Notes: generated from the sequence alone by a model not told the origin. A DNA stretch of 64,000 nucleotides from an uncultured Methanosarcinales archaeon (GCA_964534665.1 CAZHRT010000001.1:605-64604), one strand, 5' to 3'; positions 33,725 through 48,561 are shown, numbered from the stretch's first letter. A program made the numbers and translations.

Positions 33725-33748
33725 CACATATTTAATTCTATAATTTAT

Positions 33749-33821
33749 GCCTCCGTAGCATAGTAGCTATTGCGTGGGATTTGTAATCCCAAGGTCGCGA
33801 GTGCAACTCTCGCCGGAGGCT
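33749..33821 (+). tRNA. tRNA-Thr (anticodon UGU), intron-less, with atypical D and T loops
   Basis: Folded by hand: acceptor GCCTCCG/CGGAGGC, anticodon arm TGGGA-TTTGTAA-TCCCA, variable AGGTC, T arm GCGAG-TGCAACT-CTCGC. 73 nt, with no encoded CCA. Confidence 0.8.
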
Positions 33822-33913
33822 CTCTTTTTTCTTTCGAGTTTAACGAGAAAGCTTTTGAGGGTTGATACAGGGCAAACTGCCCTTATTGCTGGCTCCGCCG
33901 GAGGCTCTCTTTT
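33822..33913 (+). other. tRNA-trailing two-hairpin element ending in an exact 18-nt repeat of the tRNA 3' end
   Basis: CGCCGGAGGCTCTCTTTT occurs at 33811-33828 and again at 33896-33913. Hairpin 1 is CTTTC/GAAAG with loop GAGTTTAACGA (33831-33851). Hairpin 2 is AGGGCA/TGCCCT (33869-33883). Confidence 0.7.
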
Positions 33914-37049: not shown

Positions 37050-37074
37050 AGATATCTTTAATTCTGGAGAGTAT

Positions 37075-37203
37075 GCGCCTGTAGCTCAGCTTGGATAGAG
37101 CGATAGTAGAGCTATTTTCTACCGCGAATGCCTCCTAGTTGAGTGGTTTTGCTCCACACAAGAAGTAAGCAATAGGTCCGGAGTTCGAATCTTCGCAGGC
37201 GCG
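37075..37203 (+). tRNA. tRNA gene with about 54 nt of extra internal sequence; isotype unresolved
   Basis: Acceptor GCGCCTG/CAGGCGC, D arm GCTC-AGCTTGGATA-GAGC, variable AGGTC, T arm CGGAG-TTCGAAT-CTTCG. 72 nt lie where 18 are expected. Candidate anticodon loops are TTTCTAA (UCU) and CTCCACA (CCA), and I could not decide by eye. Confidence 0.75.
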
Positions 37204-37290
37204 TTCTTGTCCTACTGAGTTAAGCGAAGTAGGACTTAATTCTCTACGAGTGTGCGTGAACGCATAAGTTCCAGCATCTTCGCAAGCGCG
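37204..37290 (+). other. tRNA-trailing two-hairpin element ending in a 15-nt (14/15) repeat of the tRNA 3' end
   Basis: ATCTTCGCAGGCGCG (37189-37203) compares with ATCTTCGCAAGCGCG (37276-37290). Hairpin 1 is GTCCTACT/AGTAGGAC with loop GAGTTAAGCGA (37209-37235). Hairpin 2 is TGCG-TGAA-CGCA (37253-37264). Confidence 0.7.
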
Positions 37291-37335
37291 CTTTTATCTT
37301 AACCTTTTTATACTAAAAACTATTTTACTGCCTAT

Positions 37336-48280: not shown

Positions 48281-48561
48281 CTCTAGGCAAGCTAGGCTGG
48301 CAGGTTAGCCCTCTGTTGTTACCATCAACGGGCTTTAGGTGGAGTCGAAGCTTGGTAAGAGGTATAAACTTAGTTTATCAGTCTCTGTATGGACGTTGAA
48401 ATTCTGTCCTATAGGATTGATATCTTAAGGAACCGCGCCAGGGCAGGAATGCAGCAACGCTAACTTCTGATATTGATGCTTATAGGGTAGCGGAATTGAG
48501 GAAATATAGGGGTAGCTGGTCTTCTTTGTTTGTATCCATTATCAAGCGTGCTTGCCTACTT
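48281..48561 (+). ncRNA. Signal recognition particle RNA (archaeal 7S)
   Basis: A GC-enriched ~280-nt island with no ORF. CGCCAGGGCAGGAATGCAGCAACGC matches the helix-8 pattern CGCCAGG-NNN-GGAA-NNN-AGCAACG that I recall from methanogen 7S RNA. The terminal helix is TAGGCAAGC (48284-48292) with GCTTGCCTA (48550-48558). Confidence 0.8.

Follow-up and report, generated by a model that had tools for sequence, protein, structure and literature searches.

What lies between the intact 3' end of a tRNA gene and a second copy of that same end 87 nt downstream? The question is raised by the gene for tRNA-Arg(CCT) in a 64,000-nt stretch of DNA from an uncultured Methanosarcinales archaeon (GCA_964534665.1 CAZHRT010000001.1:605-64604; the whole stretch is hereafter called the window, and positions are counted from its first letter). 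Two hairpins are located between the two copies, and a segment of the same plan follows the gene for tRNA-Thr(UGU) in the same window. A first-pass annotation, made from the sequence alone, took these segments for a recurrent tRNA trailer maintained by selection as an RNA structure or a protein-binding site. We assign a probability of about one half to a different reading, namely, that the Arg trailer is a small non-autonomous mobile or integrative cassette inserted behind the intact 3' end of tRNA-Arg(CCT), with a displaced second copy of that end on its other side.

A mobile or at least horizontally exchanged cassette, rather than an element dedicated to tRNA processing, is suggested by the patchy occupancy of orthologous sites, the presence of different cassettes at one tRNA, the existence of arrays, and the synonymous divergence of the repeats behind coding genes, and further by the recurrence of one core at many unrelated targets, always co-oriented with the intact gene. 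Because an intact gene followed by a 3' copy that starts in a loop matches the integrative elements at archaeal tRNAs, we favor a miniature integrative cassette moved in trans.

Anatomy of the two trailers

The Arg trailer and the gene that it follows were divided into the following features.

37075..37203, + strand: tRNA-Arg(CCT) gene with two introns (ARAGORN cloverleaf after intron removal; comparison with the ortholog at locus L011)
37189..37203, + strand: repeat copy 1, functional (perfect pairing with the 5' acceptor strand GCGCCTG; repeat search)
37204..37208, + strand: linker TTCTT, with no long T run (sequence)
37209..37235, + strand: hairpin 1 module, with an 8-bp stem, tandem GA/GA, 2 bp (G-C, U.G), and a triloop (folding, alignment, covariance model R1)
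37236..37250, + strand: spacer containing TTAATTCT (repeat family; TTAATTCT is also found in the 5' leaders of both tRNAs)
37251..37266, + strand: hairpin 2, a local variant, UGUGCG-UGAA-CGCAUA, with one G.U (folding; no sequence homology to the family core)
37267..37275, + strand: junction with a degenerate T-loop start, AGTTC followed by CAGC in place of GA (sequence, repeat comparison)
37276..37290, + strand: repeat copy 2, the putative displaced 3' end (repeat search)
37291..37312, + strand: T-rich stretch CTTTTATCTTAACCTTTTTATA, a probable terminator (its start is similar to the tRNA-adjacent sequence in L009, which lacks a cassette)

The anatomy proposed in the first-pass annotation was recovered throughout. 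The last 15 nt of tRNA-Arg, ATCTTCGCAGGCGCG (37189-37203), recur with one mismatch and a spacing of 87 nt as ATCTTCGCAAGCGCG (37276-37290). This repeat encompasses the end of the T-loop, the 3' strands of the T-stem and of the acceptor stem, and the discriminator base; with up to two mismatches allowed, there are only two matches in the 64 kb, against 0.00 expected (100 shuffles). As noted earlier, the similarity is weaker leftward (AGTTC, 37267-37271), and it extends rightward too (26 nt at 81% identity). The G-to-A change in copy 2 would create a C-A mismatch in the acceptor stem. Although an alternative RNase Z or CCA-addition site had been considered for this pseudo-3' end, it is best read as the 3' end of the target, displaced by insertion.

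The 72 nt between the Arg repeats hold hairpin 1, formed by GTCCTACT (37209-37216) and AGTAGGAC (37228-37235), with 8 bp and the 11-nt loop GAGTTAAGCGA; a 17-nt spacer (37236-37252), in which TTAATTCT (37236-37243) lies directly 3' of hairpin 1; and hairpin 2, TGCG-TGAA-CGCA (37253-37264), which can be extended to 6 bp at 37251-37266 and is separated from the second repeat copy by 11 nt. Given the lack of a long T run in the linker, transcription probably continues into the cassette.

The previously reported similarity of the tRNA-Thr trailer (33823-33913) holds as well: it shows the same succession of repeat, hairpin 1, 17-nt spacer, hairpin 2, and repeat.

33749..33822, + strand: tRNA-Thr(UGU) gene, the partner locus (ARAGORN, Rfam)
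33811..33828, + strand: repeat copy 1, the last 12 nt of the tRNA and the flank CTCTTT, followed by a T6 run (repeat search)
33831..33851, + strand: hairpin 1, CTTTC GAGTTTAACGA GAAAG (folding, alignment, model R1)
33857..33886, + strand: family core, GAGGGTTG and the palindromic hairpin ATAcAGGGCA-AAC-TGCCCTTAT (model R1)
33896..33913, + strand: repeat copy 2, the putative displaced 3' end with flank (repeat search)

Here, the repeat CGCCGGAGGCTCTCTTTT is an exact 18-nt match between 33811 and 33896 (spacing of 85 nt, 0 expected by chance), and 67 nt lie between the copies. The covariance model R1, built from 12 copies that all come from other genomes, matched the Thr cassette (33831-33891) with 71.7 bits and E = 2.9e-16. 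In the Arg trailer, hairpin 2 takes the place of the palindromic core of the family; the Arg and Thr second hairpins are not homologous, and the Arg cassette shares the hairpin 1 module and the overall plan while having a second hairpin of its own.

The cassette family and its orthologous sites

Copies in other genomes were sought with two patterns, the first corresponding to hairpin 1 plus the spacer (the left half) and the second, used for a metagenome scan, to the core hairpin. True matches to the left-half pattern were found only in metagenome-assembled genomes (MAGs) of Woesearchaeota and Nanoarchaeota and included two further elements, located after tRNA-Arg(CCG) and tRNA-Thr(CGU) in two Woesearchaeota MAGs (L022 and L047), each followed by a 16-21-nt copy of the 3' end of its own tRNA; the other tRNAs on the L022 and L047 contigs have no cassette. 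Most of the 34 genome matches to this pattern were discarded as bacterial chance matches. Five of the first-pattern matches (L025, L026, L041, L042, and L048) come from a single Pseudomonadota MAG, JBDRQE01; the L025 match, beginning with TTTCGAGCGACAGCGAGAAATC, looks unrelated to the archaeal cassette, and the five may represent a bacterial interspersed repeat.

The core pattern was found in at least 119 metagenome stretches, and once chance matches had been removed, the core (T)GAGGGTTGATAAGGGCAGACTGCCCTTAT was common to at least about 67 different loci; the core of the window Thr cassette is present in these true family matches and also in L011, L022, and L047. The metagenome loci carry no taxonomy of their own. 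The family belongs to genomes of the Woesearchaeota/Nanoarchaeota (DPANN) type; its cassettes are 35-190 nt long and consist of a T-rich linker, an optional hairpin 1 module, and a second hairpin, mostly the palindromic core GAGGGTTGATAAGGGCAGACTGCCCTTAT. Hairpin 1 is absent from many members, and the minimal cassette is reduced to a T-rich stretch and the core (L068, L106, and L121).

An intact tRNA on the same strand, followed by the cassette and then by a copy of the tRNA 3' end, was observed at 37 or more distinct loci, for which the ARAGORN calls span at least 14 isotypes, the calls being approximate where the genes contain introns. The extent of the second repeat depends on the tRNA class: that of class I tRNAs reaches from T-loop positions 58-60 to the 3' end and often takes in a few flank bases, and that of class II tRNAs begins within the variable loop and has a length of 33-76 nt. 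The window repeats start at 37189 (A59) for Arg and at approximately 33808 for Thr. Typically, the second repeat is preceded by G, UGGG or UGAG, and AAU. In about 10 copies, its T-stem strand is altered and the acceptor strand is kept, and a T-loop copy with an altered interior, as at the Arg junction, is also present in other members of the family.

The core is not confined to tRNA genes. It was detected behind 5S rRNA (L054), secY (L051 and L153), NAC (L124), and another open reading frame (ORF; L163), and in each case the last 13-45 nt of the gene are repeated after the core. The repeat copies behind coding genes differ mainly by synonymous or conservative changes. At L051, both secY ends encode HPMMRKFME-stop and differ by AGG/CGA, AAG/AAA, and TTC/TTT, that is, by four substitutions, all of them synonymous; by a rough estimate, in which about one-quarter of random substitutions are synonymous, drift would produce this pattern with p ~0.004. 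Both copies thus evolved as coding sequence, which would not be expected of a fresh target-site duplication.

Tandem units are present in L077, L153, and L169. L069 and L086 contain the same class II tRNA with two related unit types in opposite order, an arrangement that is a small array with a rearranged history; one of these units has a variant second hairpin, TTGCAAC/GTTGCGG, instead of the canonical core. An unbiased survey of the sequence behind 55 tRNAs of the fetched loci yielded only that of L011 as another cassette type, although this sample was chosen for the core and says little on this point.

At the orthologs of the window tRNA-Arg(CCT) locus, the segment is variable. Eight contigs of the same population are identical to the window. 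In L009, whose TruD is 88% identical to that of the window, the T-rich stretch directly follows tRNA-Arg, with neither a cassette nor a second 3' copy. In L011/L012, a syntenic MAG contig with 61% identity in TruD, tRNA-Arg is followed by a 190-nt element with hairpin 1 and a variant core; the hairpin 1 and spacer of this element are homologous to those of the Thr element of the window, and after it come a degenerate repeat of the Arg 3' end and then the flank shared with L009. At the tRNA-Arg(CCT) of L068 and L121, there is a minimal, core-only cassette.

At the tRNA-Thr(UGU) locus, L011 keeps the canonical Thr cassette, about 88% identical to that of the window, although the proteins of the two genomes are only 61-77% identical and the upstream intergenic DNA is unalignable. 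The similarity therefore extends beyond the two window loci, the Thr copy being retained in a genome with a TruD only 61% identical. Of four further lineages, two lack a cassette at this locus (L171 and L172, which together with L009 for tRNA-Arg(CCT) represent the unoccupied sites in relatives), and one contains a different unit (L169/L170). The latter is 72 nt long, unrelated to the cassette, and bordered by 27-nt repeats made up of the tRNA 3' end and flank; one sample has two such units and the other a single one (L169 3685-4023 vs L170 2193-2459), with an identical neighboring protein, a recent copy-number change.

The notion of a constant device trailing tRNAs is not supported by these comparisons, considering that hairpin 1 is optional, the element is absent or replaced at the Arg locus in relatives, and the core occurs behind 5S rRNA and protein genes and in tRNA introns. 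The L169/L170 unit, situated between tRNA-Thr 3'-end repeats and variable in number between samples, is the kind of structure that could be produced by a local event, such as slippage duplication of the tRNA 3' end combined with unrelated filler that happens to fold. For the window cassettes, such an origin is extremely improbable: the same core and hairpin 1 follow dozens of genes in many genomes, R1, which contains foreign copies only, recognizes the window with E = 3e-16, and the structure covaries, so that on sequence evidence, the local explanation is already contradicted at the level of the family.

Hairpins, introns, and the possible route of entry

The first-pass annotation described the stems of hairpin 1 as different in sequence with pairing preserved. 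An alignment of 16 distinct sequences, two from the window and 14 from other genomes, bears this out. The hairpin 1 loop is not open: loop positions 3-9 and 4-8 pair, so that the stem is followed by GA, 2 bp, a triloop, and GA. All seven pairs show compensatory double-sided changes, and 100% of the alignment cells pair; none of 500 shuffles reached the observed values, and sliding the partners destroyed the signal. The outer stem served to select the sequences and is therefore biased, whereas the inner two pairs, which played no part in the selection, also vary in concert (GC 8, AU 6, GU 2; and CG 11, UA 3, UG 2). Thus, the covariation holds once more copies are aligned, which supports hairpin 1 as a single-strand structure under selection. 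The covariation analysis covers hairpin 1, the metagenome scan having required the core hairpin sequence. All wobble pairs of hairpin 1 are G.U on the sense strand, and the variant second hairpins of the window Arg cassette, of L011, and of unit B of L086 likewise use sense-strand G.U. Wobbles of this polarity indicate that the hairpins matter in single-stranded form on the sense strand, either as RNA or as single-stranded DNA (ssDNA).

If as RNA, the segment would be a small RNA with a function of its own or a structured 3' trailer, transcribed together with the tRNA and cut free by RNase Z, in which hairpin 1 would bind a protein, for example, L7Ae, and the 3'-end mimic would act in processing or regulation. 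The covariation with its sense-strand wobbles fits such a role, as do the strong conservation of the Thr cassette between distant genomes and the likely read-through into the Arg cassette, ahead of which there is no T run; yet, ahead of the Thr cassette, there is a T6 terminator. Thermodynamically, the signal is weak; the Thr trailer does not stand out in folding energy (z = -0.06), and the Arg trailer does so only modestly (z = -1.9). Moreover, the optional nature of hairpin 1, the absence or replacement of the cassette at the same tRNA in relatives, and the cassettes behind protein genes and 5S rRNA weigh against such a role. Rfam searches returned noise only for the trailers, whether at the gathering threshold, with E <= 1 over the full window, or with E <= 10 for the trailers taken singly. 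Altogether, we consider an RNA function of this kind unlikely.

A K-loop-like L7Ae site in hairpin 1 had also been raised as a speculation. In the alignment, G6, A7, and A16 are invariant, and G15 is conserved in at least 90% of the copies, so that tandem G.A pairs are possible at the sequence level. The 3-nt bulge of a K-turn and the open loop of a K-loop are both absent from hairpin 1, in which two covarying pairs and a triloop follow the GA/GA. A C/D box small RNA was rejected because the C (RUGAUGA), D (CUGA), and C'/D' boxes are absent on reading the sequence and there is no Rfam match; for H/ACA small RNAs, the hammerhead, and other small ribozymes, the box and core motifs are likewise absent on reading the sequence. 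A leader-trailer processing stem, suggested by 17 nt of 76% complementarity between the Arg leader and 37261-37277, was rejected as well, because its geometry does not suit an extended acceptor helix and tRNA-Thr has no counterpart.

In several relatives, the core is present on the opposite strand inside the T-loop of a tRNA, without a long repeat. On the tRNA strand, the order is T-stem, UUCR, AAN, core hairpin, further sequence, YGAA, A(A/G)U, and T-stem, which corresponds to the bulge-helix-bulge (BHB) layout of an intron at position 59/60, with two 3-nt bulges and a 4-bp helix, found in six relatives. The helix covaries (UUCG:CGAA three times, UUCA:UGAA three times), and deletion of the antisense insertion yielded a tRNA detectable by ARAGORN in seven of nine loci. 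In the L087 tRNA, with the anticodon UCC by reading, the antisense core is at the start of a canonical anticodon-loop intron; the intron form is thus not limited to the T-loop.

These introns bring up an alternative origin for the same-strand copies, whereby the second repeat would be the original 3' exon of a 59/60 BHB intron that now starts with a duplicated 3' exon and a terminator, so that the tRNA could arise in two ways, through termination behind copy 1 or through read-through followed by splicing to copy 2. We regard such a short-circuited intron as quite unlikely. Many same-strand copies do read hairpin, G, UGGG/UGAG, AAU, and T-stem 3' strand, mirroring the antisense 3' splice site (CGAA, AAU, and T-stem 3' strand), and in 14 of about 24 class I copies, UGGG/UGAG pairs with T-loop UUCR at four of four positions by G.U or Watson-Crick pairs. 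Nevertheless, only a G.U-rich 4-bp helix is possible in the same-strand copies, with three of four pairs in the window Thr cassette and none in the Arg cassette; the motif is absent in the copies of class II tRNAs and behind 5S rRNA and protein genes; and the T-stem strand of the second repeat is mutated in about 10 copies, as is the acceptor strand in the window Arg copy.

Under the favored mobile-cassette reading, the cassette would recombine into a gene somewhere between the T-loop, or the variable loop in the case of class II tRNAs, and the 3' end. The incoming cassette would bring its own 3' segment, so that the tRNA would stay functional, and the old 3' end would be displaced downstream as the second repeat and then decay. 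As the cassette has neither cargo nor an integrase, the enzyme would act in trans, and the hairpins would be cis-acting single-strand structures of the element that fold on the sense strand. When transcribed, the cassette would become part of the 3' trailer taken off by RNase Z. The T-arm DNA is almost a palindrome, so that the cassette could conceivably insert in either orientation; in an inverted insertion in the T-loop, the core would form the distal helix of a BHB intron, removable by the splicing endonuclease. In the absence of a replacement 3' end, only those antisense insertions that form the BHB motif would survive.

A rival route would be that of IS200/IS605 derivatives resembling palindrome-associated transposable elements (PATEs), or of integron attC-like sites, in which an HUH or a tyrosine enzyme supplied in trans reads folded hairpins on ssDNA and tiny circles are feasible. 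Hairpins with wobble pairs on the sense strand only, the absence of terminal inverted repeats (TIRs), and the two orientations at the near-palindromic T-arm are all compatible with this mode, and some copies have GCGAAGC, which as DNA forms a very stable mini-hairpin, in the inner part of hairpin 1. IS200/IS605 insertion, however, gives no long duplication, whereas long repeats flank the cassettes. Furthermore, hairpin 1, which would have to serve as the left-end hairpin, is not always present; the sampled flanks (4 kb, about 70 loci) encode neither TnpA nor TnpB; and the synonymous differences of the gene-end copies require an imported copy. Hence, we consider this route very unlikely.

Several observations weigh against the mobile-cassette reading as a whole. 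No recurrent integrase or transposase is present in the 4 kb around about 70 loci; when 464 ORFs from 72 loci were clustered all against all, only housekeeping and hypothetical families emerged. The core is absent from IMG/VR viral contigs (0 matches with two patterns) and from phage and plasmid collections, and neither an autonomous parent nor an enzyme was found in these searches. A circle of approximately 85-150 bp is very small for a classical tyrosine-recombinase substrate, and with neither TIRs nor a duplication of fixed length, classical transposition does not fit. L009 is not a clean empty site, as its tRNA is followed downstream by 560 additional nt that include an ORF. The second-best match of R1 in the window, the Arg cassette, covers hairpin 1 only (15.1 bits, E ~0.08), so that only hairpin 1 is common to the Arg cassette and the canonical family. 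The sense-strand wobbles of hairpin 1 also fit an RNA role. The conservation of the Thr cassette suggests that it is under purifying selection or was recently acquired independently, and an RNA function could account for it.

More broadly, and only tentatively, these data may point to a so far unrecognized class of enzyme-less miniature cassettes in DPANN archaea that home to the 3' parts of conserved genes, give rise to BHB introns in the inverted form, and perhaps are moved by trans-acting, structure-specific recombination (single-strand or RNA-assisted).

Relation to known elements and genomic setting

An intact tRNA gene followed by a partial direct copy of its 3' part is the classical configuration of integrative elements at archaeal tRNA genes (PMC9897764, PMC3293823). 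The cassettes share with the att duplications of SSV1, pNOB8-type plasmids, and integrative and conjugative elements (ICEs) or genomic islands such as PYG1 a 3' repeat that starts in a loop, a replaced 3' end that keeps the gene functional, and the existence of empty sites. They differ in that att repeats are separated by kilobases, whereas the cassettes are only 35-190 nt long and contain neither integrase nor cargo, and also in the 30-nt core conserved across targets, the use of 5S rRNA, secY, and NAC 3' ends, and the formation of arrays. Cis-mobilizable elements (CIMEs) are likewise att-flanked, lack an integrase, and are presumed to be mobilized in trans, but they are kilobase-sized decay products of ICEs in Firmicutes. 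To our knowledge, no CIME is this small or this conserved in sequence.

Like the cassettes, MITEs (miniature inverted-repeat transposable elements) and PATEs are small, non-coding, hairpin-rich, present in multiple copies across genomes, and devoid of an enzyme of their own. Unlike them, the cassettes have no TIRs and no short fixed target-site duplication, are strictly located at the 3' ends of conserved genes, and are low in copy number (two in the 64 kb of the window). In particular, the ends of the element are not inverted repeats, as they would be in a MITE, and the repeats vary in length from 13 to more than 45 nt. The variable repeat length, the absence of TIRs, and the absence of Cas1 nearby also set the cassettes apart from casposon- or CRISPR-like integration by Cas1, which gives a duplication of 14-15 bp or of repeat length. 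With the K-turn and K-loop motifs bound by L7Ae, hairpin 1 shares two GA dinucleotides facing each other at the top of a helix, where sheared G.A pairs are possible; it differs in the covarying 2-bp stem and triloop that follow the GA and in lacking a C/D or H/ACA setting.

BHB introns at non-canonical positions of archaeal tRNAs, and their "intron transposition" in Thermoproteales, have been described previously (PMC4090602, PMC3293823). The antisense core copies share with these introns the succession of helix, bulge, 4-bp helix, and bulge at 59/60, and related introns are found in different tRNAs, whereas the window copies are outside the tRNA, on the same strand, and not needed for splicing. 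In the literature searched, the core sequence is mentioned in no paper and we found no published account of the element; publications on DPANN tRNA introns, intron transposition, integrases, and MITEs provide general frameworks only. Thus, the kinds of components involved (att-type tRNA duplication, non-canonical BHB introns, and non-autonomous elements) are known, but the element itself is apparently undescribed, and the occurrence of one element both as a flanking cassette with a duplication and as an intron is, as far as we found, apparently unreported.

How the tRNA genes of archaea came by their introns, fragments, and split forms has long been an open question, for which integration of mobile elements is the leading idea, based on a few kilobase-scale cases, for example, in Caldiarchaeum (PMC3293823). 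The three states of one short element described here (flanking cassette with a duplicated 3' end, tandem array, and T-loop BHB intron) make this link testable in existing metagenomes and in the new complete genomes of Nanobdellota; if the link is real, it would provide direct sequence evidence that mobile DNA seeds archaeal tRNA introns. On the practical side, a mobile element specific to DPANN archaea can be conveniently tracked by the conserved core, and displaced 3' ends together with intron-laden tRNAs confuse tRNA annotation.

The window tRNA-Arg is a case in point: in its intact form, it was missed by ARAGORN, with and without intron search, as well as by the Rfam tRNA model. Its introns, with splice boundaries accurate to about 1 nt, are located at approximately 37107-37130 (5' strand of the anticodon stem) and 37138-37167 (the canonical 37/38 position), and after removal of both, ARAGORN folds a clean 75-nt tRNA-Arg(CCT) cloverleaf. 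The two-intron solution came from comparison with the L011 ortholog, which is called Arg(CCT) and has one intron only; brute-force removal of a single intron proved uninformative, ARAGORN being too permissive. In the close relative L009, the first intron is longer than in the window.

The window is AT-rich, with a GC content of about 32%, and archaeal; it contains a signal recognition particle (SRP) RNA gene of the archaeal type at 48285-48557 (Rfam, 138.8 bits). The best named relatives of TruD and adjacent window proteins are in Woesearchaeota and Nanoarchaeota MAGs. The genes around both tRNAs are housekeeping ones, encoding an Obg-like GTPase, adenylate kinase, TruD, YbjQ, and PPDK, and with no integrase or recombinase domain among these neighbors, an integrated virus or plasmid at the window loci was rejected. 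In L169, a GTPase gene in the conserved Oap/Obg neighborhood (1-694) contains an intein with a LAGLIDADG domain (precomputed Pfam).

Upstream, the two tRNA genes share the motif TTTAATTCT at 33731-33739 and 37057-37065, in both cases at the same distance from the mature 5' end (-18 to -10) and downstream of a TATA-like box; the motif may be a lineage-specific promoter-proximal or leader element. Motifs resembling AATTCT(GGA) are also present upstream of tRNA-Thr in L169 and L172.

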